The notes: generated from the letters alone by a model not told the origin. Shown: positions 9,926 to 57,064, counted from the first letter of the stretch. The stretch: 64,000 nt of DNA from Coprothermobacterota bacterium (GCA_037440465.1 JBBIUB010000001.1:20307-84306); one strand, 5' to 3'. Program-made: numbers and translations.

Positions 9926-9928
9926 GAT

Positions 9929-15158: not shown

Positions 15159-15199
15159 TTATAACTGATTCCGGTAAGTTATTATCTTGTTTTTGGACA

Positions 15200-18060: not shown

Positions 18061-18062
18061 TT

Positions 18063-38529: not shown

Positions 38530-38531
38530 AA

Positions 38532-39362: not shown

Positions 39363-39380
39363 AATGAGGTATAGTAAGCC

Positions 39381-40178
39381 ATGAGTTTAACTATAAGAAT
39401 GCACCAATTATCTTTTTCTTCTGTTAAAAAAGATAATCTTAATAAATTGCTCAATTTAATGGATGAATCCGATGCCAATCTGGATATCTTTCCAGAATAT
39501 GCCATGGGTGTACCTTCTACAGGACTCAACAAGGAGTATGTTCATGAAAATGCTGAATCACTTGAAGGTGAATTTGTAAACAATATACTAAAAAAAACCT
39601 ATAAAAAGAACTCTGTTGTTGTTTTTACTACTTATCTAAAGGAAGAAGAAAAAATATTTAACGCAGCAATTCTTGCCGGAAGAGGAGAAGTAAAAGTAGT
39701 ATATAAAAAAATCCACTTATTTGATGCCTTTGGCTATAAAGAATCTGATCTTTTCACTGCAGGTAGTGAGTTAGCTATGACAGAGTTCAAAGGGTTTAAT
39801 ATTGGTTTAGCAGTATGTTTTGACCTTAGATTTCCTGAGTTGTTCCGGATTATGGCTTATAAAGGCGTTAATCTTTTCATCTTACCTTCAGCCTGGTATG
39901 CAGGAAAATATAAGTTAGAACAGTGGAAGTCTTTATTAATGGCAAGAGCCCATGAAAACACTTCTTATTTTATCGGAGTCAATCAAGTTAAACCAACTTT
40001 CGTAGGTCATAGTATCATAACATCCCCACTTTGTTATGTCATTAAGGAAATGGGAGAAGAAGAAAAGAGTACAACAGTGACGCTGGATTACAAAGAGATA
40101 GAAGAAGCAAGAAATATAGTACCTACAATAGAATTATCTAAACCAGAACTTTACGAAAAGTTCAAGAAAATTATCTGA
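39381..40178 (+). CDS. Carbon-nitrogen hydrolase family protein (nitrilase/omega-amidase-like)
   Basis: A catalytic E-K-C triad region with the Cys in GLAVCFDLRFPELFR. It is 265 aa. Confidence 0.8.
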   Translation: MSLTIRMHQLSFSSVKKDNLNKLLNLMDESDANLDIFPEYAMGVPSTGLNKEYVHENAESLEGEFVNNILKKTYKKNSVVVFTTYLKEEEKIFNAAILAGRGEVKVVYKKIHLFDAFGYKESDLFTAGSELAMTEFKGFNIGLAVCFDLRFPELFRIMAYKGVNLFILPSAWYAGKYKLEQWKSLLMARAHENTSYFIGVNQVKPTFVGHSIITSPLCYVIKEMGEEEKSTTVTLDYKEIEEARNIVPTIELSKPELYEKFKKII

Positions 40179-40215
40179 CAAAACTAAACCTGATAATTGT
40201 GGTTGTTACAACCGT

Positions 40216-41424
40216 TTATTGATGTTTTGTCCTCTCTAATTTGTAGAATAAGAGGTAAAAAAGACTTATTGAAGCTGAGTACAAAACAATAGCATAATAG
40301 AAAATATTACTATAACCATATGTTTCAATAATTGTTCCTCCTATCCTCATACTTATAGCTCTTGCAAGAGAATCTGTCATATTAGCTACACTGTTCACTA
40401 CAGGTCTTTCAACAGATGTGGTTATTTCCATTGCAAAGTTCTGATTCGCTGGTCCAGACATATTCATCAAAGCTTGCCTGATAAGAAAAGAAGGAATCAC
40501 CAGCATTAAGCTTCGACTTGAACCAAGAATATACATAAAAGGTAAGGAACAGAGTTCTGTAACAACTACTGTGCCCACAAGACCCAATTTCCTGACCAGA
40601 CGGGGTGTTGTAAGGATAGCTAAAAATGTACTGAATTGAGCAAGGGTGAAAAGGATACCGATATTATTAGACGACAATAAGTGAACAGATTTAAAATATA
40701 AATTTAAAAAAGGTACGAATAATCCTGCTCCTAATCCGATTAACAACCTCGGAAGAAGAAGACGAAGTATCAAGCTATACCTTACCTTGCCCCATAATTT
40801 CAAAAAACCTCCATCTATTTCAATCTTTTTAAATGGAAGTTTTGAAAGAAAAGGTATACATAATAATCCCACGCTCAATCCGATGAACATTGTCCATTGA
40901 TAACGTAGCCCCAGATTTATTCCTTGAGAAAACATCTGTGGTAAATAACCACCAGTAAGACTACCAATTGCGTGGGAAAGTAGGTGGGCTCCTGAAACAA
41001 GACTGAATATGTAGGGCCTTTCCTCTTTTTCAGAATTATCCATAAGATACGGAGGAGTTGCCACCACAAAAACCATTTCAGAAAAACCAATGATTAAAGA
41101 GAGACCAGCTAAAATTTCCTGCTTAGGAAAAATAACCATCGTAAGTTGTAGAAGAAAAGAAATCAAAAAAGAACCAGAAAAAGCAATCTTAGATGGAAGT
41201 CTATGGACCAAAGCTGCAGCAGGTATAGCAAAAATAACATTACCCATAGCTCTATAACTCAGTATTGAACCAATCGCCCTTTCTCCCAAGCCTGCTTCTT
41301 TTAGAAATAGGTTAAACACCAGTGAAAAATATGCCCCGCCCAACCCAAAAAAAAGAAGGGCAAACAGAAGTAGCTTTATCTCTCTTTTAAAATTCTTTAA
41401 TTGGTTGATATATTCAATAATCAA
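40216..41424 (-). CDS. MFS transporter
   Basis: It has 12 predicted TM helices and MFS-like loops. Confidence 0.8.
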   Translation of the reverse strand: MIIEYINQLKNFKREIKLLLFALLFFGLGGAYFSLVFNLFLKEAGLGERAIGSILSYRAMGNVIFAIPAAALVHRLPSKIAFSGSFLISFLLQLTMVIFPKQEILAGLSLIIGFSEMVFVVATPPYLMDNSEKEERPYIFSLVSGAHLLSHAIGSLTGGYLPQMFSQGINLGLRYQWTMFIGLSVGLLCIPFLSKLPFKKIEIDGGFLKLWGKVRYSLILRLLLPRLLIGLGAGLFVPFLNLYFKSVHLLSSNNIGILFTLAQFSTFLAILTTPRLVRKLGLVGTVVVTELCSLPFMYILGSSRSLMLVIPSFLIRQALMNMSGPANQNFAMEITTSVERPVVNSVANMTDSLARAISMRIGGTIIETYGYSNIFYYAIVLYSASISLFYLLFYKLERTKHQ

Positions 41425-41637: not shown

Positions 41638-42038
41638 ATGAATATAGTAGCCTTCAATGGAAGTCTGATAGTTGAAGGAAATACCGAAATTCTTCTCAAA
41701 GAAACATTGAAACCTGTACAAAAAGGACTACACGAAATCATATTTTTCAAGTTAAATGAAATGAATATTAAGCCCTACCAGAACTGTGGTGGCTGCGAGA
41801 GAACAGCGCTCAAGCTAAAATTATGATAGATAGATGTCAGTGTTTATGGTGTGAAAAGTACCTTCTTTAAAAACCAGTTATAGCAGGTACTGATGGTAGA
41901 AAAGGCGAACACAAAACCTTGGGTTTCCTGGGAATTGATGCCAAGGGTGATATCTTAAACCACCCAACAGCGTTAATAGAGTCCTTTCAAGAGGGAGAAA
42001 AGCTGATAACTATTAGAACAAAATAAGGAGGAGTTTAT
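41638..42038 (+). pseudogene. Degraded iron-sulfur flavoprotein (Isf)/NADPH-dependent FMN reductase-like gene
   Basis: The 62-aa ORF MNIVAFNGSLIVEGNTEILLKETL... matches the Isf N-terminus (MKI-GISGSPRKGGNTE-LLKEAL, NIKPC-GC). Stops at 41824-41832 interrupt it, and the downstream frame carries flavodoxin-like remnants (KPVIAGTDGRKGEHKTLGFLGIDAKG) up to a stop at 42026. Confidence 0.5.
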
Positions 42039-43259
42039 ATGAAGATTGGGATATTAGCCTTAACTTCCGGAGAAGAATGGAAGAATGAAAAAAATGAACT
42101 TTTAAATCAACTAAAAGATGTTTTATTCAAACAAGGATTTGATTCAGATGAGGTAACAAATAACTTTCCTGAATTTGATTATGTATTAACCTTTGTGATA
42201 ACTGGTGGTACAGAAGGTAAGTTTAGAGAAAACTTAAGATTTCTGAAACCTCCATATATAATTGTTGCTCATCCTTACTACAATTCTCTTCCTGCATCCC
42301 TGGAAATAAAAGCCTTTTTAGGTAAAAAGGGGGGTATCTTTCTTTTTGAAAAAGAAAAAGTTGAAAATGAACTTACAAAGATGCTTAAGGTCATAAAAAT
42401 AAAAAAAACTCTTAATAGTAAAACTATTGCACTTATTGGAAACCCATCTTTCTGGCTCATAGCATCTTCTCCTCCCCTCCAACTTATAAAAGAAAGATTC
42501 GGTTTAGAAGTAAAACAAGTACCACTTGAAGAGCTAATTAGTGAGTATGAAAGGTTGAAAGAAGAAGATGTATTAGACGAAGCAGAAAGTATTCTCAAAA
42601 GAACTTCTGAGATAATAAAAATAGATATAAAAGATATAGTAAAAGCCCTAAAACTTAAAAAATCCATTGAGTCTATCAGGGAAAAAGAATATTTTGATTA
42701 CCTTTCTCTTGAATGTTTCAGCTTAATCAAGCCTCTTGATACAACAGGCTGCCTTGCCCTTTCCTTATTCAATGATATTGATCTCGTTTCAGGATGCGAA
42801 GGTGATTTACCTTCAACCTTGACTATGATAATTTTAAAGGAGATTAGTGGTTCTCCCAATTTCTTAGGTAACATAAGCTGGGTAAAACAGAAGGGAGATA
42901 TTTCTGAAGTTACTCTTACTCACTGCACAATAGCTACATCCATTTTATCTTACTTCCAACTTACTACTCACTTTGAGACAGGAAAAGGAGTCGGAATTAA
43001 GGGTTTCCTTCCTGAAAACATTGGAACTTTAGCAAGAATTGGAGGAGAAAGGCTGGAAAAGATTTTCTTCAGGAAGGCTCAAATCACTAATAACCTAAAC
43101 CAGGATAATCTTTGTAGAACACAATTATTGTTGGAAGTTGAAAACTCTAAACAATACTTTTTAAAAGAACCCCTCGGAAATCACCATATCTGGACCTCAG
43201 GAAACCTTCAAAATGAACTTAAAATATTCGCTGAGATATTCAATTTAGAAAAAATTTAA
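42039..43259 (+). CDS. Putative sugar isomerase, L-fucose/L-arabinose isomerase-like (COG2407-type); assignment uncertain
   Basis: It has an N-terminal flavodoxin-like fold (MKIGILALTSG), a central GCEGDLPSTLTM motif and a C-terminal NHHIWTSGNLQNELKIFAEIFNLE, which resemble the FucI/AraA catalytic-domain Glu and His metal ligands. A strong RBS (AAGGAGGAG) is upstream. Confidence 0.35.
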   Translation: MKIGILALTSGEEWKNEKNELLNQLKDVLFKQGFDSDEVTNNFPEFDYVLTFVITGGTEGKFRENLRFLKPPYIIVAHPYYNSLPASLEIKAFLGKKGGIFLFEKEKVENELTKMLKVIKIKKTLNSKTIALIGNPSFWLIASSPPLQLIKERFGLEVKQVPLEELISEYERLKEEDVLDEAESILKRTSEIIKIDIKDIVKALKLKKSIESIREKEYFDYLSLECFSLIKPLDTTGCLALSLFNDIDLVSGCEGDLPSTLTMIILKEISGSPNFLGNISWVKQKGDISEVTLTHCTIATSILSYFQLTTHFETGKGVGIKGFLPENIGTLARIGGERLEKIFFRKAQITNNLNQDNLCRTQLLLEVENSKQYFLKEPLGNHHIWTSGNLQNELKIFAEIFNLEKI

Positions 43260-43282
43260 TAAACTAAGCTAAGGGGATTAGA

Positions 43283-44608
43283 TTAATTTGAATGGTAATC
43301 TTGAAGCTTCTTACTACCCTTTAAACGATGAAGACGTCGATTTCTCTCGTCAACCTCTTTTTTTATTTCATCAAGATCAACCGATAATATCTTCCTGTTT
43401 TTCACTACCAACTCACCATTCACTATCACTGAATCTACATCCCCCTCCTGTATAGAGTAAAGGATATGTGCAAAGAGATGGTCTTCTGGAATAAGAGAAG
43501 GTGAGTTTTTCTTTATCAGAATAATATCAGCTTTGAATCCTTCCTGGATTTCTCCAAGGTCTGATAAACCCAACACATTAGCGCCTTTTACAGCCATAAG
43601 AGGTAAAACCTCTTCTATCTTTATTATTTCCGGGTTTCGGGCAACGACTTTACCCATTAAAGCTCCCATTCTTGCTGCCTCTATAATACTTAGAGAATTC
43701 CCAGAAGTAGTACCATCCGTACCCAAACCTACTTTTACTCCTCCCCTTATAGCTCTTTCCAGAAAGTTATTGGAATCGCCAAACTTCATATAGGTTTTAG
43801 GACAATGAGCGATACCTCCTCCCATGGTTTTTATCAGTTTAAAATCCTCATCTGTCGCATAAAGGGCGTGGGCAAGTATCGTTCCTTCTCTTAAAATACC
43901 CATTTCCCGTATAACCTCAACAGGTGTTTTTCCATTCCTGTTTAAACTTATTGCTACTTCCTTTTTTGTCTCTGAAACATGAATATGACTTTTAAGCCCT
44001 GTTTGTTTACTAATATCCGCAACTCTTCTTAAAAAATCTTCAGGACAGGTGTAAGGAGAGTGAGGACCGAGAGAAATATTAAGGCGGGTGTTCAAACCAA
44101 CATAACTCTCATTAAACTTCATGGCTTGTTTGAATTTACTTTCCCAGTTTTCACCCAGACCAAAAATGGCATAAGCCAGATCAGCCCTCATGCCTATCTC
44201 ATCGTAAGCCTGAAAAGCCTTCTCCATAAAGAAATAGTGGTCGGTAACTGTTGTTACGCCATTTAGCAACATCTCACATGCACCAAGAAGTGTTCCCCAG
44301 TAGACATCGTCAGGCTCAAGGTTAGCTTCTAATTTCCAGATTCCTTCATTAAACCAGACCTCCGGTGTCACATCCTCAACAGCTCCCCTTAGAAGAGTCA
44401 TAGCTACATGAGAGTGAGTATTAATCAATCCTGGTAGAGCATAGAATATACTTCCATCAATTACCTCCTCGTTTTCACGAGTTGGAGTAGAGGTTGTCCC
44501 TGCTGTTTCTACGATATTGGTAATTCTTCCATTTTCTATAATAATATCTTTATTATTAAAAACCTTAAGTTGAGAAAGGTTAATGATATCAATATTCTTA
44601 ATTAACAT
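43283..44608 (-). CDS. Amidohydrolase, 5-methylthioadenosine/S-adenosylhomocysteine deaminase-like (MtaD/TRZ-ATZ family)
   Basis: The metal-binding HxH motif is in GLINTHSHVAMTLLRG, with later HIHVSET and GLGTDG motifs. It is 441 aa. Confidence 0.8.
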   Translation of the reverse strand: MLIKNIDIINLSQLKVFNNKDIIIENGRITNIVETAGTTSTPTRENEEVIDGSIFYALPGLINTHSHVAMTLLRGAVEDVTPEVWFNEGIWKLEANLEPDDVYWGTLLGACEMLLNGVTTVTDHYFFMEKAFQAYDEIGMRADLAYAIFGLGENWESKFKQAMKFNESYVGLNTRLNISLGPHSPYTCPEDFLRRVADISKQTGLKSHIHVSETKKEVAISLNRNGKTPVEVIREMGILREGTILAHALYATDEDFKLIKTMGGGIAHCPKTYMKFGDSNNFLERAIRGGVKVGLGTDGTTSGNSLSIIEAARMGALMGKVVARNPEIIKIEEVLPLMAVKGANVLGLSDLGEIQEGFKADIILIKKNSPSLIPEDHLFAHILYSIQEGDVDSVIVNGELVVKNRKILSVDLDEIKKEVDERNRRLHRLKGSKKLQDYHSN

Positions 44609-45553
44609 TTACCCTCCTGATCTCTTATCAAGATTAGCAATTGCAAAGAAAACCATCTCCTTAAAATGTGGTAGATTCAAATCAAATGCCACATCCACGT
44701 TAGCTTTTTCTCCAGTGATACCATATACATCCACCACTGTTCTTCCTCTAGTAAACTCCCCCGATGTTTCAATCTTTACAGCTAACTTCCTTGTTTTAAC
44801 TATTCCCTCTTCAATGACTTCAGCCACTGCAAGAGCATCATGAAGTGGAGCACCATTAAAGGAGAAAACTTCTCTGTAAGTAGAAATGTAAAATGATAGG
44901 AGATCAGCCACCTTCTTAGAAACCATACCGTTCATCATTCTAAATTTTTCCACATCTTCATTAATAAAAACAGCTTTATGAGTGGCATCCAGGCTCACCA
45001 TGGTAATGGGAAGTCCCGACTCAAAAACAATCTTAGCTGCTTCCGGATCTACAAAAATATTGAATTCCGATGCAGGAGTAATGTTACTCTCAAAAACTGC
45101 TCCACCCATAAGAACTATTCGCTCAATTTTCTGTTTGATTTCTGGTTCTTTAACCAAGGCAATTGCTATATTGGTTAGAGGACCTGTGGGTATTAAAAAT
45201 ACTTTTTCTTCTGAAGATCTGCAGGTCTCAATTATTAAGTCCACTGCATGGATTGGTTGAGGTGTAATGTCCGGTTTAGGAAGATCTACTCCTTCAAGCC
45301 CAGAAACTCCATGAATCTCTGGAGCTGTTCTAAGTTCTCTGAGAATAGGTTTTGAAAATCCAGCTGCTACCTTAACTATCCTTTCATTTATAAGAGTCAA
45401 TATTCTTAAAGTATTATCAAGGGTTTTATTAAGGGTTTGGTTGCCTGCTACTACCGTAACACATTGAACATTCAATATATTAGAACCAAACGCCAACATT
45501 AGAGCGATGGCATCATCGTGACCTGGATCGCAATCAATAATAACCTTTTTCAT
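44609..45553 (-). CDS. iunH: Nucleoside hydrolase (inosine-uridine preferring type)
   Basis: The N-terminal Ca-binding DxDxxxDD motif is in MKKVIIDCDPGHDDAIAL. It is 314 aa. Confidence 0.9.
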   Translation of the reverse strand: MKKVIIDCDPGHDDAIALMLAFGSNILNVQCVTVVAGNQTLNKTLDNTLRILTLINERIVKVAAGFSKPILRELRTAPEIHGVSGLEGVDLPKPDITPQPIHAVDLIIETCRSSEEKVFLIPTGPLTNIAIALVKEPEIKQKIERIVLMGGAVFESNITPASEFNIFVDPEAAKIVFESGLPITMVSLDATHKAVFINEDVEKFRMMNGMVSKKVADLLSFYISTYREVFSFNGAPLHDALAVAEVIEEGIVKTRKLAVKIETSGEFTRGRTVVDVYGITGEKANVDVAFDLNLPHFKEMVFFAIANLDKRSGG

Positions 45554-46479
45554 TTATCCTCCTTGGTTCTAAGAGAATAAAACACCAGAAAAACTATAGT
45601 GGCTAAATAAGGAATCAGTTCTATGAACTCTGAAGGCACTCTTAATGACTTGAAGTAAATTGCCAGAGCATTAGTAAGACCGAAAAGTATAGAAGCTAAT
45701 AAGACACCTATGGGCTTATGTCCTCCTATTGTAGAAGCAGCGATGGCTATGAAACCTCTACCAGCAACCATGTCTCTACCAAACCAGGTAACATATCCCA
45801 TTGAAAGGTACAACCCACCAAGGGCACCAAAAAATCCACTCAAAGCTAAAGCTAACATCTTTGTCTTAAAAACACTAATACCTACTGAAGATGCAGCATT
45901 AGGGTTTTGACCCACTGCTCTAATCCTTAAGCCTATTGGAGTCTTGTAGATGAGAATATAAAAAATAATCACAGATAAGAAGGATAAGTAAGTAAGTAAA
46001 TTATGCCCACTAAGCGCTTTACCTATATATGGTAATTCTTTTATTAAAGGAATATGAACTACAGGAAAAGCTAAGCTGTTGAGAGAACTGGAAACTCCTT
46101 TATCACCCGATGCCAGATAGAGAAGAAAAACTGTCAAGCCTGAAGCAAGCATATTCAGGGCAATACCAGAAAGGATGATGTTAGCTTTAAGTTTCATACT
46201 AAAATAACCAAGGAGTAGGGCAAAAGAAATTCCTGCCAGACTACCAATCAGGAAAGAAATAATTAAATTTTTAGTAAGCGCACTAACCAGTACACCAATA
46301 AATGCGGAAAAAAGCATTATCCCTTCCAGGGCAATGTTAACTGTTCCACTCTGATTGGATATGGCTACTCCTATGCTGGCATATAATAAAGGTGTAGTGA
46401 CTCTTAATATAGTAAAAACAAATCCTATAGAGAAAATACTCTTAAGAACTGCTTCCATCTTTTGCTGCCTCCTTAACAA
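45550..46479 (-). CDS. ABC transporter permease (BMP/nucleoside-system, BPD_transp_2 family)
   Basis: A 309-aa polytopic membrane protein in an operon with the BMP substrate-binding protein and a dual-domain ATPase. Confidence 0.8.
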   Translation of the reverse strand: MLRRQQKMEAVLKSIFSIGFVFTILRVTTPLLYASIGVAISNQSGTVNIALEGIMLFSAFIGVLVSALTKNLIISFLIGSLAGISFALLLGYFSMKLKANIILSGIALNMLASGLTVFLLYLASGDKGVSSSLNSLAFPVVHIPLIKELPYIGKALSGHNLLTYLSFLSVIIFYILIYKTPIGLRIRAVGQNPNAASSVGISVFKTKMLALALSGFFGALGGLYLSMGYVTWFGRDMVAGRGFIAIAASTIGGHKPIGVLLASILFGLTNALAIYFKSLRVPSEFIELIPYLATIVFLVFYSLRTKEDK

Positions 46480-47506
46480 TCAAACGATGTCTCCAGAACT
46501 CAAGAAAAGCCTGAGAAGTCACTAGTAGAATAATAATTGCCTGGATTACTGTTACCATTTCTGCAGGGATATCAGTCACTAAATTAACAATTTGAGCACC
46601 AGTGATAAGATAAGAAATAAAAAGAGATGTCACGATTATTAAAAGTGGGTGGTTACCAGCAATAATGGCAGCCATAATTCCATTCCAACCATATCCAGGA
46701 GACGCTTGCCAGTTAAATCTCCCATGGATACCCATAACTTCTATCATTCCTCCCATTGCTGCTAAAGCACCACCAAGAACAATAGAATAAAGGATGACTC
46801 TTTTCACATTTATCCCGCCATACTTAGCAAAGCTTAAGTTCGCACCAACCATTCTTATCTCATATCCCCATTTAGTATGAAAAAGAAAGATGTAAACAAG
46901 AAAAGCAGCAATAAGAGCAAAGATTATACCAAGATGGATTCGTGTACGTGGGATAAATTGAGCCAACAGTACAGTTTTAGGAATAGCATTGGAAACGAGG
47001 TAGCCAGCAGCTTGATCCCTGAAGTGAAAATTAATAATATAAAGACCTGAATAATAGAGGATAAAATTAAACATCAAGCTTGTTACAAACTCATTTATCT
47101 TAAGACGGGTTTTCAGAAGAGCTGGTATTAAACCAACAAACATCCCTACGATAAACACAAATGCAAGAAGAAGAAAGTGATGTAAACCAGAAGGGAACCT
47201 TGTAAGAAGAGCAAAAGCAGTGCCAAGAGTACCACCAAAGTAAAGAGCGCCTTCAGCTCCAACCCAAAACTGTTTTGCTTGAAAAGGAATGGATGCAGCA
47301 AGACCGCAGAATATTAATGGTGTTGCTGTTTCAAATATAAAGCTTAACCTGCTTCTTGAAGCAAGAGGACCGATAAGCAGACTTCTTATCGAAAGAAGAG
47401 GGTTATCGCTGACCAGAAACATAATAATAAAAGCCAGCGTCAGTCCAATTGAAATTGAGAGAAGGACTCTTATTAAATCAAAATATTTTAGAATAAAACC
47501 TCTCAC
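46442..47506 (-). CDS. ABC transporter permease (BMP/nucleoside-system)
   Basis: A 354-aa polytopic membrane protein that overlaps its neighbours by a few nt. Confidence 0.8.
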   Translation of the reverse strand: MRGFILKYFDLIRVLLSISIGLTLAFIIMFLVSDNPLLSIRSLLIGPLASRSRLSFIFETATPLIFCGLAASIPFQAKQFWVGAEGALYFGGTLGTAFALLTRFPSGLHHFLLLAFVFIVGMFVGLIPALLKTRLKINEFVTSLMFNFILYYSGLYIINFHFRDQAAGYLVSNAIPKTVLLAQFIPRTRIHLGIIFALIAAFLVYIFLFHTKWGYEIRMVGANLSFAKYGGINVKRVILYSIVLGGALAAMGGMIEVMGIHGRFNWQASPGYGWNGIMAAIIAGNHPLLIIVTSLFISYLITGAQIVNLVTDIPAEMVTVIQAIIILLVTSQAFLEFWRHRLIVKEAAKDGSSS

Positions 47507-49032
47507 TACATAACCTCCTTCTTTTTAATACCCAACATATAAGGTCCCAGGTCTTTCCCATTCAAATCAGGCGTATTAACAAACTCACCTACGATTTCTC
47601 CTGAATAAATAACCAGGATTCTTGTAGATAACTTAAGAACTTCTTCAAGATCTGCAGAAATAAGCAAGATGGCAGCTCCTTTGTTACGAAATTCAATAAG
47701 AAGACGATGAACGGTATCGGTAGCAGAAACATCAATACCCATAGTAGGTTGATCAGCAATAATAAGTTCTGGGCTGGAAGATAACTCTCTGGCCACAACT
47801 ACTCTTTGAATGTTACCCCCAGAGAGTGAGCCTACCCGAGCATGAGCATTAGGGGTAGCTATAGAAAAACTTTTAATCAATTCCTTTGCATATTGATTAA
47901 TATTTTTCCAATTAAGAAACAGTATATTAGAGAAGGGTTTTTTCTGATACCTATCCACTATCAAATTTTCTTGAGTAGAGATATCAAGAGCAGCTCCGTG
48001 TTTCATCCTATCTTCAGGTATGTGGGCTACACCTTTCTCCCTTATTTTCCGTGGAAGATGACCAAGAATATTATCCCCCTTAAAGATAATTTCTCCGTAA
48101 CTACTGGTTCTCAAGCCAGTAATAATCTCAGCGAGCTCAGTTTGACCATTCCCTTCTATTCCAGCAATACCGAGAATCTCACCTTTTTTTAATTCAAAAT
48201 TAATCTTATTTAAAACAGGCCTTCTTTCTAAATTCATATATGAGAGATCCTTGACTATAAGAGATGATTCCCCCACTTTAAGAGATTGCTCCACTTTCTC
48301 AAAAGAAAGATCTCTCCCAACCATAAGATAGGCCATATCTTTCTCCGTTGTATTTTCAACCATTTGAGTGGCTACAACCTTTCCATCCCTCATGACAGTT
48401 ACAAGATCAGCTACTGCTTTAACTTCTTTTAGTTTATGAGAAATAAATACTATTGTTTTACCTATCTTCTTTAAGCCCTTAAGTGTTTCAAATAACACTT
48501 CAGTCTCTTGGGGAGTTAGGATAGAGGTTGGTTCATCAAGAATCAAAAGTTCTACTTCTCTAACCAAAGCCTTAAGGATTTCTACCCTTTGTTGAACACC
48601 AATGGGTAAATCCTTTATCTTTAAGCGGGAAGGCACTGAAAGACTGTAATATTTTGATGCATCTTCAGCAGATTTCAGAGTTTTTTTAATATCCAGGAAG
48701 ACTCCTTTTCTTGGTTCTATCCCGAGAAATAAGTTCTCAGCCACTGTTAAGTCAGGGGCTAACATAAGATGTTGATGAACCATGCCTATTCCCAGCTTAA
48801 TAGCTTCGTGGGAATCAAAAATTTTTACTTTCTTACCTTTAAAGTAAATCTCACCCTCGTCGGGTCTTTCAAGACCAAAAACAATTTTCATAAGGGTACT
48901 CTTCCCAGCACCATTTTCACCAACTAATGCATGAATAGTGCCAGGTTCAACCTTCAAGGAAACACCTCTGTTAGCTACAACACCATTTGGATATACTTTG
49001 ACTATGTCTTTTACTTCAAGAATTGGATTCAT
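47506..49032 (-). CDS. ABC transporter ATP-binding protein with two fused ABC domains
   Basis: Two Walker A motifs (GENGAGKST; GIAGIEGNGQT-like) and two signature motifs (LSGGNIQRV). Confidence 0.9.
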   Translation of the reverse strand: MNPILEVKDIVKVYPNGVVANRGVSLKVEPGTIHALVGENGAGKSTLMKIVFGLERPDEGEIYFKGKKVKIFDSHEAIKLGIGMVHQHLMLAPDLTVAENLFLGIEPRKGVFLDIKKTLKSAEDASKYYSLSVPSRLKIKDLPIGVQQRVEILKALVREVELLILDEPTSILTPQETEVLFETLKGLKKIGKTIVFISHKLKEVKAVADLVTVMRDGKVVATQMVENTTEKDMAYLMVGRDLSFEKVEQSLKVGESSLIVKDLSYMNLERRPVLNKINFELKKGEILGIAGIEGNGQTELAEIITGLRTSSYGEIIFKGDNILGHLPRKIREKGVAHIPEDRMKHGAALDISTQENLIVDRYQKKPFSNILFLNWKNINQYAKELIKSFSIATPNAHARVGSLSGGNIQRVVVARELSSSPELIIADQPTMGIDVSATDTVHRLLIEFRNKGAAILLISADLEEVLKLSTRILVIYSGEIVGEFVNTPDLNGKDLGPYMLGIKKKEVM

Positions 49033-49083
49033 CTATACTCCTGAAAGAATAGGGGGAGGTTGAGAACCTCCCCCCACCAGGTC

Positions 49084-50151
49084 TTAACCACTGACGAAAG
49101 CGGTATCGACCTTAATTTCACCGTCTAAAATTTTCTTCTCCAGTTCCTTTATAAAATCTATAAATTCCTGGGAAACCAATTTTCTATAAATTTCGTTATT
49201 GGCTACTCCAACGCCTTCCTCTTTAATACCCAGAGCTTCAGCTTGACCTAAAGGCATCTTATTTTCTTTATAAAGTCTAATTGCTCTATATAAAGACTTA
49301 TCAACATTTTTAAGCATGGAGGTTACAATAAGATTGGCTTTTGCAGGATCGCTTTCAGCGAAGAGAAGGGACTGGTCAGAGTCAACGCCAATGGCATATT
49401 TATTGGCTTCTTTAGCTGCATCCATTAAACCAAGACCTGTCATACCTGCCACATTAAAAATAATATCTGCTCCCTGAGCATACTGGGCAATACAGAGTTC
49501 CTTCCCCTTGGCAGGGTCAGCAAATGTGCCTGCATAAGATACAAGAACGTTTATGGTTGGATCAACTTGTTTGGCACCCTGAATATAACCTACTTTAAAG
49601 TCGTTTATTACAGGGATATCCATGCCACCGAGAAAGCCTATTGTCTTAGTAGCATTAGCAAGTGGCATTGTAGAAGTAGTAATTTTAGCTGCCAGTGCAC
49701 CCACCAAGAATGAGCCTTCATTCTGCTTGTAAAGGATGGAGTAAACATTACTGAGGTTACCTTTACTGTAATCTACTGTAGTATCAAAGATAATATATTT
49801 TTTATCTGGATACATCTGAGCAACCTTTTCCAGGTTCTCTTGCATCTGCCAGGTTCCTACAATAATAATATCCCAATCTTGCTCCGATAGTTGGACTAAA
49901 TCTGGTTCCCATTTGGCAGGGTCATAACCACCTTCAATGGTTTTTCCTTCCACATCAAGATCCTGGATAGCCATCTTTAAACCACGATCAGCGGAATCAA
50001 AGAATGACTTGTCGCCGAGAGTTCCATTAATATAGAGAACTACCTTTAACTTGTCCACTACTTCTGGTTCCTCTACCTTGGGTCTTGAAACATAATAAAC
50101 AACTCCGCCAATTACTACTATGGCTACTAAAATCCATACCCAATTTTTCAC
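49084..50151 (-). CDS. BMP-family (PnrA-like) nucleoside-binding ABC substrate-binding protein
   Basis: An N-terminal TM/signal anchor precedes a BMP/Med periplasmic-binding fold (KVVLYINGTLGDKSFFDS...). It heads the transporter operon. Confidence 0.85.
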   Translation of the reverse strand: MKNWVWILVAIVVIGGVVYYVSRPKVEEPEVVDKLKVVLYINGTLGDKSFFDSADRGLKMAIQDLDVEGKTIEGGYDPAKWEPDLVQLSEQDWDIIIVGTWQMQENLEKVAQMYPDKKYIIFDTTVDYSKGNLSNVYSILYKQNEGSFLVGALAAKITTSTMPLANATKTIGFLGGMDIPVINDFKVGYIQGAKQVDPTINVLVSYAGTFADPAKGKELCIAQYAQGADIIFNVAGMTGLGLMDAAKEANKYAIGVDSDQSLLFAESDPAKANLIVTSMLKNVDKSLYRAIRLYKENKMPLGQAEALGIKEEGVGVANNEIYRKLVSQEFIDFIKELEKKILDGEIKVDTAFVSG

Positions 50152-50316
50152 TTTCCTTTTCCTCCTTACAAGAATTACTTAGAAATTTTACTTTCTTTCT
50201 AAGTTTAACAAAAAACTATTCTTCGCACTGAATCTTTACTATAAAACAACCTCCTTTCTTTCTTAATTTTTCAACTATAAACTTTTTCTTTACAATCTCA
50301 CACATTACTATTTATT

Positions 50317-51234
50317 TTAACTAATTTTTTTACTCTTTAGACTTTTTTCAAGAATATTCCTGAATAAATCTCTATCAATCTCAGTTACAATCTCAAGTCT
50401 TTCTCCTTCCTTTAAAACACTCATTCCCCTCATCGTTGTGTAATTTAATTCCATCTCCAGACCAGCAATAATCTTACCCTTAATAACCTCAGGATACAAA
50501 TAAGCAGCCATAGCTATTGGGTCAGGAAGTGTCAACTTCTCTAAGCCATAGAATTTATGGACAAATCTAATTGGAGTAGCTGCTAATTCCAAAAAAAGAT
50601 TACCGAGTCTACCTTTTCCTGCAGCAATTTCATTTACTTCTTTTTTTGAAAAAGGTATTTTAACGATAGGATCCCAGGGAACAATTAGAAAGGGTATATC
50701 AAGGTTTAACAAGTATTGCGCTGATTCGGGATCTGCAAAGAAATTAAATTCTGCGAACTTTGTAACATTACCTCTTTCAATTGCTCCTCCCATAGCCACA
50801 ATGCTCTTGACCTTTTTCTTTACTTCAGGAAATAGATTAAATGTTATAGCAAGGTTAGTCAGTGGTCCAAGTGTTATAATATCTATATTATCTTCCTTGA
50901 TGAGTAAGTCTTTTAATCCCTGAGGAGCTGAAACACTTTCTTCCATCTTTGAACCCAGAGGAAGAGAAACGTTACCAAGACCATCTTCTCCATGAACTCC
51001 TTCAGCACGAATTAACTTCTGAATTAGGGGAGCAGAAGCACCTTTATAAACAGGAATCTCTTCTCTTCCCATGAAATGGAGAAGGCGAAGGACATTACGC
51101 GTTGCTTTCTCTATAGAAACATTACCGTTGACAGTTGATATACCTATTACTTTTATATCCTTAGTTTGAAGTGCCATAATAATAGCTATGGCATCGTCTA
51201 TGCCACAATCAGTATCAATAATAATCTTCTTCAT
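50317..51234 (-). CDS. Nucleoside hydrolase (second paralog)
   Basis: It begins MKKIIIDTDCGIDDAIAIIMAL and is 305 aa. Confidence 0.9.
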   Translation of the reverse strand: MKKIIIDTDCGIDDAIAIIMALQTKDIKVIGISTVNGNVSIEKATRNVLRLLHFMGREEIPVYKGASAPLIQKLIRAEGVHGEDGLGNVSLPLGSKMEESVSAPQGLKDLLIKEDNIDIITLGPLTNLAITFNLFPEVKKKVKSIVAMGGAIERGNVTKFAEFNFFADPESAQYLLNLDIPFLIVPWDPIVKIPFSKKEVNEIAAGKGRLGNLFLELAATPIRFVHKFYGLEKLTLPDPIAMAAYLYPEVIKGKIIAGLEMELNYTTMRGMSVLKEGERLEIVTEIDRDLFRNILEKSLKSKKIS

Positions 51235-52126
51235 TTCTCTCCTTTAGGAAATCTAATATTTCTTGTTTCTCTGGTGCAGACTGAGAAGCACCCGGCCGGG
51301 TTACTGAGATGGCAGCTGCTGCGCAGGCAAAGGTAATTGCTTTATTAAAACTATATCTCTCACTAAGAGCTACCGCTAATGTACCATTAAAGACGTCTCC
51401 AGCTGCAGTGGAATCAAGTGCATCAACCTTGAAAGCTGGAAAGTGGAAACTATTATTCTCATCAACATAGTAACAACCTTTATTACCTAATTTGACCAGA
51501 ATCTTTTTCGCTCCCATTTCTTTTAAGATTTCCACACCTTCTAAATAATGAGGAACATTTGTGAGTTGTTGCAGCTCTACCTTATTAGGAGTAATAAGAT
51601 CGGGGAGATTAACAAATTCTTTCATTGATGAAGAAAAGGGTGCTGGGTCAAATATAGAGAAGACTTTCTTTTCCCTTGCTACCTTCAAGGCTTCTACAGT
51701 GGTTTCTATGGGAATTTCTCCCTGTAAAAGGAGAATGTCACCGGGAGAAGAAAGATTGCTAAAGATTCCCACATCATCAACGGATACAAGCTGGTTAGTT
51801 CCTTTTATAATTACTATTTTGTTTTCCCCAGTTTCTGATACATTTATAAGTGCAGTGCCTGTAGATGTTCTTTCATCCTTTACAAATTGAAGATTAAGCT
51901 TCTTGCTCTTAAGTTCCTGAATCAAGACATCACCAAAAAAGTCTGCACCGACCCTTCCTATAAAGGTTACTTCTCCCCCAGCCAGCTTAGCAGCGACAGC
52001 CTGGTTCGCCCCTTTTCCTCCCTGGTTCATAATAAACCTGGTACCTACAATGGTTTCCCCAACCTCAGGAAACTTATCCGAGAAAACCACCAGATCCATA
52101 TTCACCGAACCCAAGACAAAAATCAC
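51215..52126 (-). CDS. rbsK: Ribokinase
   Basis: The PfkB-family N-terminus has GG (NQGGKGANQA), and the C-terminal motif is DSTAAGDVFNGTLAVAL. Confidence 0.85.
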   Translation of the reverse strand: MIFVLGSVNMDLVVFSDKFPEVGETIVGTRFIMNQGGKGANQAVAAKLAGGEVTFIGRVGADFFGDVLIQELKSKKLNLQFVKDERTSTGTALINVSETGENKIVIIKGTNQLVSVDDVGIFSNLSSPGDILLLQGEIPIETTVEALKVAREKKVFSIFDPAPFSSSMKEFVNLPDLITPNKVELQQLTNVPHYLEGVEILKEMGAKKILVKLGNKGCYYVDENNSFHFPAFKVDALDSTAAGDVFNGTLAVALSERYSFNKAITFACAAAAISVTRPGASQSAPEKQEILDFLKERNEEDYY

Positions 52127-52408
52127 ATCTGCCTTCTAAGAAAATACATAGTCATAATCTTACAATTATTCCAATACCTAAAAGATTCACCCTTTCCACT
52201 CTTAAAAACAACTTTTTTACTTTTTATAAACTTAACCTCTGCTATTCAAATGTATATATATTGTGTATATTCTATACCAAAAATTAACACAGTCAACTAT
52301 TTTGGGTGATTATTTTATACACTTATATTAAAATAGAGTATAAATAATTATATTTATAAAAATCTTAAACAGAGAAGAATTTATTGGGGAGGTATTCAAA
52401 AAAAGAGG

Positions 52409-53752
52409 ATGAAAGTCCAGGATTATATCAAAAGATTATTTTACGACTCCGAAATCGTAGAAAAGGATCCAGAGTGGGAAGTAATAAAATCTCAGGATAA
52501 TATCAGAACAACATACCTTACAATGCTCTGGAATAGTAGGGTTCCTTACTCCAATGCACCAGAATCTCTGGTAGCCAGTTCCATACAGTCTTTAGAAAAT
52601 CAAGGGTTTGATATGGCTAGAAGGGAAAAGCTGTTTAAAGAAGGGTTAAAAGCATTGGAAGAAAAGGATGTAAAAAAGCTGGAACTATTTACTCCTAAAA
52701 TATTTTCCACCAATTATTTAAGGAGAATAAAAAATCATCCTTACCTGAAATTTTCACGACCTTCAAGCTTTGAGGAAGTATCTAAGGATTTCCCTATTAT
52801 AAGTAAAGAAAAAATCAAATCCAGAGAAAGGGTCTATGGGGGCTTACTCGGAAGCATTATTGGTGGAGCTTATGGTACTCCCATAGAGGGTTATACATAC
52901 TGGCAACTGGAAAAAAGATATGATAAATTTGACTACTATTTAAGACCTGTGAACACAATCAATGATGATATATGCTTTCAAATAGTCTTTCTATTAAAAT
53001 ACCTTAAAAAGGGTGATAAAATAACCTCTCGAGATGTAGCATATGGCTGGTTAAAATATATACCTTTTGGATGGTCAGCGGAGTTAATAGCGCTGGAGAA
53101 TTTAAGAAGAGGCATCTTTCCACCTCAATCTGCAACACTCAATAATCCATTTGGCGAATGGATAGGTGCAGCCATGCGTGGAACTATGCCAGGTCTTATC
53201 TCCGCAGGTGACCCAAATAAAGCAGTTAGGTTGGCCTACACGGATGCTACTGTATCCCATTATCTTAATGGTGTATATGGAGAGATGTTTATATCAGCAC
53301 TGACTTCTCTAGCTTTTATCTGTAATAATATTGAGGAAATAATTAACACTGGTAAAAAATTTGTACCGCATAATACTGAGCTATACTCGGTTATTGATGA
53401 AATTTTAAGTGAAATAAATAGGGATAGGAATTTTTTCAGACTGAGAGATTACATATACAGAAGATTTCAGGATTACAACTGGATTCATCTTTATCCTAAT
53501 ATAGCAGTGGTTTTAGTATCTCTTTTATTGGGAAAAGAAGATTTTCAAAAAACCTTAGAAATGATTGGCAAGTCAGGTTTTGATGTAGATTGCAATGGTG
53601 GTATGGCATTGAGTATCCTGGGCGTTTTAAATCCAGAAAGTATTCCACAAGCTTTAATAAAACCAATTACCAACAAGATAAATACTTACCTGAGAGGTAT
53701 GGAAGAGATACAGGTAGATTACCTTGTAGATGAGATTATGAAAGCACAATAA
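52409..53752 (+). CDS. ADP-ribosylglycohydrolase (ARH/DraG) family protein with an approximately 130-aa N-terminal extension
   Basis: The ARH-domain onset is RERVYGGLLGSIIGGAYGTPIEG. Later Asp-rich metal-binding segments are present (GFDVDCNGG). Confidence 0.7.
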   Translation: MKVQDYIKRLFYDSEIVEKDPEWEVIKSQDNIRTTYLTMLWNSRVPYSNAPESLVASSIQSLENQGFDMARREKLFKEGLKALEEKDVKKLELFTPKIFSTNYLRRIKNHPYLKFSRPSSFEEVSKDFPIISKEKIKSRERVYGGLLGSIIGGAYGTPIEGYTYWQLEKRYDKFDYYLRPVNTINDDICFQIVFLLKYLKKGDKITSRDVAYGWLKYIPFGWSAELIALENLRRGIFPPQSATLNNPFGEWIGAAMRGTMPGLISAGDPNKAVRLAYTDATVSHYLNGVYGEMFISALTSLAFICNNIEEIINTGKKFVPHNTELYSVIDEILSEINRDRNFFRLRDYIYRRFQDYNWIHLYPNIAVVLVSLLLGKEDFQKTLEMIGKSGFDVDCNGGMALSILGVLNPESIPQALIKPITNKINTYLRGMEEIQVDYLVDEIMKAQ

Positions 53753-54457: not shown

Positions 54458-55045
54458 ATGATCCATAATATGAAGAAAAACAGTAATAAGAAAATAAATA
54501 ACCTGTCGGTTTTTGATAAAAACTTTAAAGAAATACTAACTTCACAACTGGTTTCTATATCAGGTGGACTCATAGCAGGAATCGTTCTCGCTGTATACAC
54601 TGATAAGATTTTCCTTATACCAGGAATGCTTATTCTACTTCCAGGATTTCTGGAAATGCGTGGAAATATTAGTGGCTCTCTTGCCTCAAGAATAAGCTCC
54701 GGTTTATTCTTAGGGGTGATTAAAACAGACAAGATCAATACCCCACTGATTAGAGGTAATATCCTAGCTTCCTTCCTGCTGGCTGTACTGGTATCCTTTG
54801 CTCTCGGTACTGTAACTTTTCTGTTAAATTTTTTGGCCTTTCGAATATTCACTCCGGAAATCATAATCATAGCTATTATTGCTGGATGTCTCGCTAATCT
54901 TGTGGAAATCCCTCTTACCCTTTTAACCACTCTCTACATCTTCAAGAAAGGGTACGATCCTAATAACATAATGGGTCCTTTTGTAACATCTACAGGAGAT
55001 ATAATCAGCATACTATCTCTCCTGATTGCGTTGGTGATAGTATGA
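54458..55045 (+). CDS. MgtE-type transmembrane domain protein (half 1 of a split SLC41/MgtE-like divalent cation transporter)
   Basis: It has 5 predicted TM helices and the motif LLPGFLEMRGNISGSLASRIS, which is typical of MgtE TM domains. It lacks the MgtE_N and CBS domains. Confidence 0.5.
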   Translation: MIHNMKKNSNKKINNLSVFDKNFKEILTSQLVSISGGLIAGIVLAVYTDKIFLIPGMLILLPGFLEMRGNISGSLASRISSGLFLGVIKTDKINTPLIRGNILASFLLAVLVSFALGTVTFLLNFLAFRIFTPEIIIIAIIAGCLANLVEIPLTLLTTLYIFKKGYDPNNIMGPFVTSTGDIISILSLLIALVIV

Positions 55046-55737
55046 AAAAGGTTACTGAACACCTTGAAAAGCTGAAAGGAACACCAAGGAAAAAACATCA
55101 TTCTCTAATAGATGAGATTCATACTGAACATAGGATTTCCAAGAAGACCCTCTTTTATATAAAAGAATATGGACCAAAATCCAATGTTCCCAGAACCATC
55201 ATCAGGGAAAGCGTCCTTATACTTCTACTGGCTTCGGCGGTTAGTTCTCTGGGAGGCTTCGCACTGGAAAGAATAAAAGTCACTTTTATCTCCCTCATGC
55301 CTTTAGTAGTCTTGTTACCTGCCTTAAATGACATGATAGGAGATTACGGAGTAATAGTATCTTCCAGGGTTTCTACTATGCTACACCAGGGTAAAATGAG
55401 GAAAAACTGGTGGTTGGATAAAGAGTTAAGGAAATTATTTCTTCAGATTTTGATTATTGCACTAATTACTACTGTTTTAAGTGTTCTTGTGGCCTTTTTT
55501 GCTTCCAAGTTTTCAGGTTATTCCACCAGCATATACACTACACTTAAGATTTTCTTTATAGCAATCCTTGATGTCTTGATAATTGTAAACATTTTATTTT
55601 TCACAAGTCTTAAAGCTGGATGGTATTTATATAAAAAGGAAGAGGATCCTAATAACTTTCTTATTCCTATTACCACCTCTATAGCAGATTTTGGTAATAT
55701 GGTTCTTTTATGGGTTCTGGTAAGACTGCTTTTTTAA
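55042..55737 (+). CDS. MgtE-type transmembrane domain protein (half 2)
   Basis: Its start overlaps the previous stop by 4 nt. It carries the paralogous motif LLPALNDMIGDYGVIVSSRVS and has 5 TM helices. Confidence 0.5.
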   Translation: MKKVTEHLEKLKGTPRKKHHSLIDEIHTEHRISKKTLFYIKEYGPKSNVPRTIIRESVLILLLASAVSSLGGFALERIKVTFISLMPLVVLLPALNDMIGDYGVIVSSRVSTMLHQGKMRKNWWLDKELRKLFLQILIIALITTVLSVLVAFFASKFSGYSTSIYTTLKIFFIAILDVLIIVNILFFTSLKAGWYLYKKEEDPNNFLIPITTSIADFGNMVLLWVLVRLLF

Positions 55738-55771: not shown

Positions 55772-57055
55772 CTACCTTTTTATGAACTGGTCTCTTTCTG
55801 GTCCTACAGACACTGCTTTAATGGGTATATTTATAAGATTTTCTAAGTAATTTACATACTCCTTAGCTTCAAAAGGTAGGTCTTTAAAAGAGCGACAACT
55901 CACCAAGTTTCCTTCCCAACCAGGTAAGGTATCGTAAACAGGCAATAATCTTAAGAATTCGGTTATTGAAGCAGGAGGATGCTCTATCACTTTACCATCC
56001 AGGTTATAAGAGCTTGCTACCTTGATCTCTTTTAAACCACTTAAAACATCAAGCTTGGTTAGGATTATCTCCGTAGTCCCGCTTACAAAAGCAGTGTACC
56101 TTGCCAGAACACCATCAAACCACCCACATCTGCGAGGACGACCAGTAGTAGCCCCAAACTCCTTACCTTTCTGTCTTAGGTACTCTCCTGTTTCATTAAC
56201 CTGCTCGGTGGGCAAGGGACCACCACCTACACGACTGATATAGGTTTTATACACCCCTATTACTCTATTAATGGATTTTAATGGTAAGCCAGTGCCAACA
56301 AGAGCTCCTCCTGTCATTGTATGGGATGAGGTTACAAAGGGGTAAGTCCCAAAATCAAGATCCAAAAGAGCGCCCTGGGCACCTTCTAATAAAATTTTCT
56401 TCCCGGAAGTGAGAGCTTCCTGCCAGAATGCAATTGAGTCAACAATGAGATCTTTTACTTCAGCAGTTTCCAATATCAAGTTAGATATAATATCATCAGC
56501 ATTCAATAATGGTTTATTCAAAACCTGCAACAATAGATTAACCTCTTTTACTCTGTTAATAATGACATCTGCTAACTCATCTGGTTTCTTAAGAAGAGCG
56601 ATCACAACTCCATCTCTTCTTGCCTTATCTCCATAAGCAGGACCTATACCTCTTCTGGTAGTTCCAATTTTTTTAGTACGTATTTCTTCTTCAATGTCTT
56701 CCAAAACAGGGTGATATGGTAAAACTAAATGCGCACGCTCACTTATATAAAGTTGTGGTTGAAAACCCATTTTCTTAAGATTATTTAACTCTTTTATGAG
56801 TTGTCCAAGGTCAATAACAACACCATTTCCTATCAAACCAACCACACCTTCATGAAGTAGGCCAGAAGGTAAGAGGTGAAAAATATATGTTTTGTCTTTT
56901 ATTTTAACAGTGTGGCCAGCATTACTACCACCATTAAAACGAGCAACTATTTCATAATCTGCTGCAAGAAGGTCAATTATGCGACCCTTACCTTCATCTC
57001 CAAATTGCATACCTATTACTATATCAACCATTTTCTGATGCTCTTTTTCTTCCAT
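55772..57055 (-). CDS. purA: Adenylosuccinate synthetase
   Basis: The P-loop GMQFGDEGKGRIIDLL is present, with GHTV and TTGRGIGPAY motifs. The true start may be the Met at 57031 (MVDIVIG...). Confidence 0.95.
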   Translation of the reverse strand: MEEKEHQKMVDIVIGMQFGDEGKGRIIDLLAADYEIVARFNGGSNAGHTVKIKDKTYIFHLLPSGLLHEGVVGLIGNGVVIDLGQLIKELNNLKKMGFQPQLYISERAHLVLPYHPVLEDIEEEIRTKKIGTTRRGIGPAYGDKARRDGVVIALLKKPDELADVIINRVKEVNLLLQVLNKPLLNADDIISNLILETAEVKDLIVDSIAFWQEALTSGKKILLEGAQGALLDLDFGTYPFVTSSHTMTGGALVGTGLPLKSINRVIGVYKTYISRVGGGPLPTEQVNETGEYLRQKGKEFGATTGRPRRCGWFDGVLARYTAFVSGTTEIILTKLDVLSGLKEIKVASSYNLDGKVIEHPPASITEFLRLLPVYDTLPGWEGNLVSCRSFKDLPFEAKEYVNYLENLINIPIKAVSVGPERDQFIKR

Positions 57056-57064
57056 GAATAATAA

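Follow-up and report, generated by a model that had tools for sequence, protein, structure and literature searches.

The 64,000-nucleotide stretch of Coprothermobacterota bacterium DNA analysed here (GCA_037440465.1, JBBIUB010000001.1:20307-84306; referred to below as the window) has a GC content of ∼36% and carries, between positions 42039 and 53752, a block of genes for the uptake and breakdown of nucleosides. By the names of homologues of its proteins, the organism belongs in or close to Caldisericota. Two further genes in this block were less expected: one encodes a long-form protein of the ADP-ribosylglycohydrolase (ARH) family and the other a protein with an AraA/FucI-type fold, referred to below as the isomerase-like protein. 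An earlier note, made from the sequence alone, had described the whole block as a nucleoside catabolic island. The list of open reading frames (ORFs) matched every gene coordinate given there exactly, and Pfam and NCBIfam scans upheld its family assignments: a BMP/PnrA-type binding protein, two permeases, a fused ATPase, two IU-type nucleoside hydrolases (NH1 and NH2), an MtaD-like amidohydrolase, a ribokinase and the ARH-family protein. The features are collected in Table 1. For comparison, we used a sister contig (L001) that is 60-61% identical.

Table 1. Genes and other features of the nucleoside block and of its surroundings in the window, in order of position
Feature	Position	Strand	Evidence and remarks
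SLH-anchored extracellular 5′-nucleotidase, 675 aa	33140-35167	−	Pfam SLH, Metallophos and 5_nucleotid_C
AdoHcy hydrolase	35328-36554		
Decayed FMN-reductase/flavodoxin_2-like pseudogene	41638-42009	+	tblastn with the intact 191-aa L001 orthologue; directly upstream of the isomerase-like gene
AraA/FucI-fold (isomerase-like) protein, 406 aa	42039-43259	+	AlphaFold (AF2) pLDDT 93; Foldseek AraA TM 0.81; convergent with the operon
Amidohydrolase, MtaD/TM0936-like nucleoside deaminase	43283-44608	−	Pfam Amidohydro_1 E 8e-55; last operon gene
IU-type nucleoside hydrolase NH1, RihA-like	44609-45553	−	PF01156 E 7.5e-100; DCDPGHDD at residue 7
ABC permease 1	45550-46479	−	BPD_transp_2 PF02653 E 2.4e-40
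ABC permease 2	46442-47506	−	BPD_transp_2 PF02653 E 1.7e-32
Fused double ABC ATPase	47506-49032	−	Two ABC_tran stretches, E 1.6e-51; resembles RbsA/XylG-type sugar ATPases
BMP/PnrA-family substrate-binding protein	49084-50151	−	PF02608 E 1.8e-60; N-terminal hydrophobic anchor
IU-type nucleoside hydrolase NH2, RihC/IunH-like	50317-51234	−	PF01156 E 6.4e-78; DTDCGIDD at residue 7
Ribokinase	51215-52126	−	TIGR02152 equivalog, 309.5 bits (cut-off 299.65); first operon gene
AT-rich intergenic region separating the divergent ribokinase operon and ARH gene	52127-52408	.	Direct reading; both promoters presumed here
Long-form ARH-family protein, 447 aa	52409-53752	+	PF03747 at residues 144-414, E 1.1e-37; helical N-terminal extension at ∼1-138
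purA and purB	55772-58363		

Eight minus-strand genes, running from 52126 down to 43283, abut or overlap one another in the ORF list and look like one operon. The importer set within it is complete and contiguous, with a Bmp binding protein, a double ATPase and two BPD_transp_2 permeases, and the closest solved structures to the Bmp protein are the nucleoside-binding proteins Lbp, TmpC/PnrA and BmpD. By gene content, the transporter at 45550-50151 is a BMP/PnrA-type nucleoside ABC importer, with nucleoside transport as its predicted activity. Both IU hydrolases scored well above the PF01156 cut-off of 34.2 bits (334.9 bits for NH1 and 262.8 bits for NH2) and both have the N-terminal DxDxxxDD Ca-binding motif. 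NH1 reached 369.8 bits against the RihA model, for which the cut-off is 433, and the best solved relative of NH2 was the Sulfolobus purine nucleosidase 3T8I. The closest solved relatives of the amidohydrolase were the 5′-methylthioadenosine (MTA)/S-adenosylhomocysteine (SAH) deaminases 4F0R (1.5e-57) and TM0936. This kinship is at the family level only, as every NCBIfam equivalog score was below its cut-off, including those for the MtaD and DadD models (NF012037, 215 versus 779 bits; NF005557, 251 versus 522 bits).

Scans for promoters and terminators gave no signal above shuffle level. The divergent intergenic region between the ribokinase and ARH genes was searched for inverted repeats and aligned to that of the sister contig to look for a shared operator; only AT-rich, low-information matches emerged, and no conserved operator was recognised. 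The gene families at 43283-53752 bear out the description of a nucleoside catabolic island, and this region is a nucleoside uptake and breakdown cassette of a known, widespread kind.

The ARH-family protein scored 130.7 bits against PF03747, where the gathering score is 26.2 bits. Its AF2 model had a predicted local distance difference test score (pLDDT) of 94 and a predicted template modelling (TM) score (pTM) of 0.94, and Foldseek matched the model to DraG, MJ1187 and ARH3 with E-values from 4e-8 to 1e-6. These matches covered the core alone, with a target TM of ∼0.75 and a query TM of no more than 0.55 against solved structures; therefore, no solved structure includes the helical N-terminal extension of ∼140 residues. 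The extension is all-helical in the model, with pLDDT mostly >85, and matched no Pfam family. No signal peptide was found at the N-terminus of the protein.

Hundreds of homologues from many phyla aligned over 90-100% of the ARH query, and the full-length examples include proteins from Thermotoga, Pseudothermotoga, Clostridia, Erysipelotrichaceae, Treponema, Chloroflexota and Cloacimonadota. When the N-terminal 138 residues were used on their own, a word-indexed homologue search gave no matches, while an exhaustive phmmer search found the extension solely at the N-terminus of full-length proteins (∼450-540 aa) or in short fragments. There is thus no evidence of the extension in any other domain architecture. 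The earlier note had called the N-terminal extension novel; it is real, but it is a trait of the family rather than a novelty of this locus.

Residue invariance in the ARH and isomerase-like proteins was assessed by column counts over 40 homologues of each. The acids expected to form the di-metal site of the ARH protein (E160, D186, D187, D392 and D394) are all invariant, and in alignments they fall on the corresponding motifs that MJ1187 and YegU carry (GxxxE, [T]DD and DxD[T]). The extension and the motifs WSAE and YNWIHxYPN hold many invariant aromatic residues, which would suit a pocket for the base.

The association between this protein and nucleoside genes was examined in 80 related metagenome loci, whose ORFs were queried with the window's own proteins; the ARH gene was located in 79 of them. 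In 69 of the 79 loci, a nucleoside uptake or catabolism gene was present on the same strand no more than five genes away. A BMP-ABC component was found in 58 loci and was immediately adjacent to the ARH gene in 40, whereas the identical test applied to the isomerase-like family, as a control, found a BMP protein in only 2 of 78 loci. The ARH loci also contained an IU hydrolase (22 loci), a ribokinase (23) or a deaminase (15), and other repeat neighbours were a PNP_UDP phosphorylase, a LacI regulator, RbsD and a phosphoribosyltransferase (PRTase). The ten loci with no nucleoside genes were mostly short contigs.

The content of individual operons follows the same pattern. In Anoxynatronum buryatiense, a single operon with the order Bmp-ATPase-permease-permease-IU hydrolase-IU hydrolase-amidohydrolase-ARH-PfkB contains all nine families of the window. 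Clostridium rectalis has the order Bmp-ATPase-permease-permease-IU hydrolase-IU hydrolase-ARH-LacI, lacking the deaminase, and a Pseudothermotoga metagenome-assembled genome (MAG) and several metagenome loci have Bmp-ATPase-permease-permease-ARH alone. One metagenome locus (L103) has the gene order of the window with the ARH gene at the 3′ end. In the window and in the sister contig, the ARH gene is instead divergent and beside the ribokinase gene. Given the operons listed above, the ARH gene is an ancestral member of the cassette, and in this lineage it has shifted across the promoter region to a divergent position.

The long-form ARH protein is therefore a conserved, core component of BMP-type nucleoside operons in many anaerobic bacteria. 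The view that it is an unexpected yet genuine part of the island gains strong support at the level of gene association, both from the counts across loci and from the operons in isolates and MAGs.

Two of the loci (L112 and L121) have two ARH genes in one nucleoside operon: a long form comes first, at the 5′ end, and a short form follows the permeases. The short form of L112 (16202-17221) is 339 aa long and matches PF03747 with an E-value of 1.6e-62. Both operons also contain PNP, ribokinase, IU hydrolase and M20 peptidase genes.

In the pathway that we propose for the cassette, extracellular nucleotides would probably be dephosphorylated by the nearby SLH-anchored 5′-nucleotidase, a role that we infer, and the resulting nucleosides would enter through the BMP/PnrA-type ABC transporter. 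The MtaD-like amidohydrolase would deaminate adenosine-type substrates, the two IU-type hydrolases (RihA-like and RihC/IunH-like) would cut N-glycosidic bonds, and the ribokinase would phosphorylate the freed ribose. The ARH protein would act as a cytoplasmic di-metal ribosyl hydrolase that frees ribose from an imported nucleoside or riboside. Because it is sometimes the sole enzyme of the operon, cleavage of an imported riboside is the simplest reading of its role. The candidate substrate would be a class poorly handled by IU hydrolases or, where the ARH protein is the only enzyme of the operon, nucleosides generally. The aromatic-rich extension and the motifs WSAExIALxN and YNWIHxYPN would shape the aglycone pocket. 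IU hydrolases bind the ribose diol via a metal, and the ARH core does likewise with two metals.

We tentatively suggest that the long-form ARH clade (∼450-470 aa) could represent a catabolic nucleoside/riboside hydrolase class that has so far gone unrecognised. It would be convergent with the Ca-dependent IU hydrolases and would serve as the dedicated, sometimes sole, cleavage enzyme of BMP importers. Such a class may span Thermotogota, Bacillota, Spirochaetota, Chloroflexota, Caldisericota and other phyla. Several points weigh against a nucleoside or riboside hydrolase role for the ARH protein. Characterised ARH enzymes are known to cleave α-linked ADP-ribosyl bonds, not β-nucleosides. With its two IU hydrolases, the window already has enzymes for the canonical pyrimidine and purine nucleosides, and for this reason we leave the ARH substrate unspecified. 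The metal motifs are NDD and DxDC rather than the usual TDD and DxDT, with the invariant residues N185 and C395 replacing the flanking threonines. In addition, the window gene is transcribed divergently and lies outside the operon, and the literature searched contains no biochemical characterisation of any long-form ARH protein.

The ARH protein might instead be a DraG/ARH3-like regulator that removes ADP-ribose from a protein, for example the transporter, or an enzyme that degrades ADP-ribose or NAD metabolites, and not a nucleoside hydrolase at all. Its PF03747 membership and the structural matches to DraG and ARH3 agree with such a role, and to our knowledge all characterised members of the family act on ADP-ribosyl conjugates. 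We nonetheless consider it unlikely, as neither the window nor the related operons contain an ADP-ribosyltransferase partner and the ARH gene is consistently co-directional with, and adjoining, catabolic and transport genes in many phyla. BMP transporters, moreover, take up unphosphorylated nucleosides (PMC7093131). In some operons the ARH protein is also the sole enzyme beside a nucleoside-type importer.

The role known for ARH-fold enzymes is the erasure of ADP-ribosylation from protein, DNA or polymer. If the long form does hydrolyse nucleosides or ribosides, nucleoside catabolism would gain an enzyme class that is new to it, and ARH-fold chemistry would extend beyond ADP-ribosyl conjugates. 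Such an activity would also allow better annotation of hundreds of genes that carry the name ‘ADP-ribosylglycohydrolase family protein’ and would put forward a specific possible function for orphan operons, among them E. coli yegTUV (YegU), and for the ARH genes in the ribose-utilisation loci of Bacteroides.

The isomerase-like protein had no Pfam match of its own; the AraA_central family touched 36 of its 40 homologues, which share 32-61% identity, but not the window protein. A sequence-only search of the Protein Data Bank (PDB) was uninformative and a profile was needed. With the structural model, Foldseek returned L-arabinose isomerase (E 5.7e-23, TM 0.81) and L-fucose isomerase (E ∼1e-17), so that the similarity to sugar isomerases expected by the earlier note was indeed found and the FucI/AraA-like fold can be accepted.

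The catalytic motifs that had been listed for this protein hold in part. The GCEGD (253-256) and HH (382-383) motifs are present and are invariant in the 40 homologues, and in the profile alignment E254, within GCEGD, aligns with AraA E306 and FucI E337. In contrast, the second acid of the catalytic pair, which in AraA and FucI also binds Mn, is not matched: AraA E333 corresponds to Ala/Gly at position 277 and FucI D361 to an invariant asparagine, N278 (hhalign; mainly from the AraA alignment, at 83%, the FucI alignment being of low probability). The active site is thus only partly canonical. Among the histidines, H295 and H382/H383 show no variation, and their positions would be plausible for the metal ligands that AraA has in H350 and H450; the profile alignments end at about residue 299. 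The protein has exactly five cysteines (226, 238, 253, 296 and 359), all of them invariant. Against the SftI equivalog model NF048012 it scored 60.1 bits, with a cut-off of 700, in a partial match covering residues 104-301. The literature searched gave no biochemical characterisation of this family. A metal site, an Fe-S site or thiol chemistry is possible, and the protein belongs to a separate, stand-alone family whose chemistry is probably non-canonical. It was seen solely in anaerobes (Caldisericota, Halanaerobiales, Bacteroidales and Clostridia).

The gene is convergent with the end of the operon, with 23 bp between the two stop codons. Its neighbourhoods were compared in 80 species-representative genomes and extra contigs, giving 78 loci with a homologue (77 species-representative genomes and the sister contig). 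The genome loci are mostly from Bacteroides, leaving only ∼10 independent contexts. In ∼10 other lineages the context varied by clade and consisted of unrelated housekeeping genes. In several Caldisericota the gene follows those for L19, a signal peptidase and RNase HII. In Halanaerobiales it lies between Obg/YhbY and an ABC-F protein, and in Halanaerobium between glycogen synthase (GlgA) and SufC/SufBD-like genes. Elsewhere it is found beside GrpE-DnaK-DnaJ or beside a P-II protein, and in ∼50 Bacteroides, Phocaeicola and Prevotella genomes it is divergent from an aminotransferase and a MacB-type permease.

With the window proteins as queries, an IU hydrolase, a deaminase or an ARH gene was found near a homologue only in the sister contig, among all 78 loci. 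A BMP transporter was found there and at one other locus only (L007), and the sole other kinase match was a weak PfkB-family hit (in L077). L007 comes from Caldisericum sp. CG2_30_36_11 (9998-16160), where a PFK and a DUF4388 protein come before the homologue, which is then followed on the same strand by Bmp-ATPase-permease-permease. This is the only independent case of the isomerase-like gene adjoining a BMP transporter. The BMP genes of L007 are only distantly paralogous: the E-value of the binding protein is 6e-41, compared to 1e-100 or better for true orthologues.

The placement of this protein in the nucleoside island thus finds no support in its homologues' neighbourhoods, where a nucleoside hydrolase, ribokinase or ARH gene accompanies it only in the sister contig. 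The homologues essentially never occur with nucleoside genes, L007 being one weak exception, and the adjacency to the operon in the window is most likely lineage-specific and fortuitous. Two observations pull the other way: the adjacency has been retained in the sister contig, and the L007 homologue is directly upstream of a paralogous BMP transporter. These leave some room for a lineage-specific link between the gene and the operon.

The earlier note had put the protein forward as a pentose isomerase of the island, acting on nucleoside-derived ribose, ribulose or a 5-deoxy-pentose. The AraA/FucI fold (TM 0.81), the invariance of the first catalytic glutamate and of the histidines, the conserved adjacency in the sister contig and the arrangement in L007 are what such an enzyme would predict. 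The convergent transcription, the housekeeping contexts that differ by clade and the finding of an IU hydrolase or ARH gene in none of the 78 loci apart from the sister contig are not. The second catalytic acid of AraA/FucI is also replaced (N278; Ala/Gly 277), the ribokinase route requires no isomerase, and the Pfam-scanned ORFs of the window (those with 150 aa or more in 1-26.6 kb and the ORFs annotated from 26.6 kb onward) include neither a kinase nor an aldolase that would process a ketopentose product. We therefore regard this role as improbable. Adjacency alone is not sufficient for annotating the gene as part of a nucleoside pathway.

Directly upstream of the isomerase-like gene, the FMN-reductase pseudogene is split into two parts that lie in different frames; it has suffered a frameshift and two deletions and is interrupted by an in-frame stop. 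The public contig annotates a 62-aa remnant there. In the sister contig the FMN-reductase gene is intact (191 aa, 9411-9986) and is directly before the isomerase-like gene. It was rejected as a conserved partner of that gene because no locus besides the sister contig has an FMN-reductase gene.

The earlier note had further raised the possibility of an MTA/5′-deoxyadenosine-derived deoxy-pentose salvage shunt. In such a shunt, taken here to include SAH, the deaminase, the ARH protein and the isomerase-like protein would turn 5′-modified nucleosides into a metabolisable deoxy-pentose. The MTA/SAH deaminases that are the closest solved relatives of the amidohydrolase, and the AdoHcy hydrolase gene ∼7 kb upstream, would be in keeping with this. 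However, none of the dedicated families of such pathways, of the MtnK/MtnA/MtnB or DrdK/DrdI/DrdA type (dedicated kinase, IF-2B isomerase and class II aldolase), was found in the Pfam scan of the window ORFs (at least 150 aa up to 26.6 kb, and all annotated ORFs beyond). The deaminase is far under the equivalog cut-offs for MtaD and DadD, and the kinase passes the ribokinase equivalog model. TM0936-type enzymes deaminate adenosine too, consistent with plain nucleoside catabolism. A salvage shunt of this type is therefore very unlikely.

Taken as a whole, the block is best explained as a nucleoside-scavenging cassette in which the ARH protein would be a nucleoside or riboside hydrolase and next to which the isomerase-like gene would be a chance neighbour; we consider this account probable. 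Gene content, folds and the association within operons are shown by the data, and the reaction and substrate of the ARH protein, the part played by the 5′-nucleotidase and the chance position of the isomerase-like gene are inferred from them.

The 5′-nucleotidase and AdoHcy hydrolase genes are both conserved in the sister contig and, together with purA/purB, they give a 25-kb stretch a purine-salvage and nucleoside theme. The region 37186-41424, which is syntenic with the sister contig, has genes for a glycerate kinase (DUF4147/MOFRL), for a PfkB-family kinase that is short at 276 aa, for a CN-hydrolase and, in divergent orientation, for an MFS transporter. Downstream of the ARH gene, an endonuclease III-like gene is followed at 54458-55737 (plus strand) by two consecutive ORFs of 195 and 231 aa, each with one MgtE transmembrane domain and without the usual N-terminal cytoplasmic domains. 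At 5741-19010, on the minus strand, there is a cell-envelope polysaccharide cluster unrelated to the nucleoside island. It encodes a pyruvyl transferase, WecG-type and GT4 glycosyltransferases, a UDP-sugar dehydrogenase, a Wzy-like protein, LytR-CpsA-Psr, a MurJ-like flippase, a MurA-like protein, a UDP-GlcNAc 2-epimerase and a GT4 family (MraY/WecA-like) protein.

The isomerase-like protein resembles AraA, FucI and SftI in its three-domain fold (TM 0.81 to E. coli AraA), in E254 and in its weak, partial match to the SftI model. It differs from them in being ∼90-180 residues shorter, in having asparagine or Ala/Gly at the second acid, in its five invariant cysteines and in lacking a sugar-operon context. 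The importer is like those of the T. pallidum PnrA/TmpC, Borrelia BmpD and B. subtilis NupNOPQ type in the family of its binding protein, in its fused double ATPase and in its pair of BPD_transp_2 permeases. Its coupling to IU hydrolases and a ribokinase is reminiscent of pathways that use nucleosides as a source of ribose. Textbook BMP/PnrA systems, in contrast, lack the MtaD-like deaminase and the long-form ARH protein, both of which are present in the window cassette.

The ARH protein shares with ARH3, DraG and MJ1187 an all-helical core (Foldseek E 4e-8, target TM ∼0.75) and conserved acidic metal-site motifs, and is set apart from them by its ∼140 extra N-terminal residues, its NDD and DxDC motifs and a catabolic rather than regulatory context. 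A parallel in gene arrangement is E. coli yegTUV, where the gene for the ARH-family protein YegU shares an operon with those for a nucleoside-type transporter and the PfkB kinase YegV; according to PMC10819704, this operon lacks a clear function. YegU, however, is a short form (334 aa) that has no N-terminal extension. Its relationship to the window protein is distant (hhalign E 9e-8) and it keeps the TDD and DTDT motifs, and the yegTUV transporter is of the MFS type, whereas that of the window is a BMP-ABC importer. In the ribose utilisation systems (Rus) of Bacteroidetes, ADP-ribosylglycohydrolases are often found alongside ribokinases and nucleoside hydrolases (bioRxiv 10.1101/574913). These are SusC/D-type polysaccharide utilisation loci (PULs) of Bacteroidetes, whereas in the window the partner of the ARH protein is a BMP-ABC importer of monoderm-like anaerobes.

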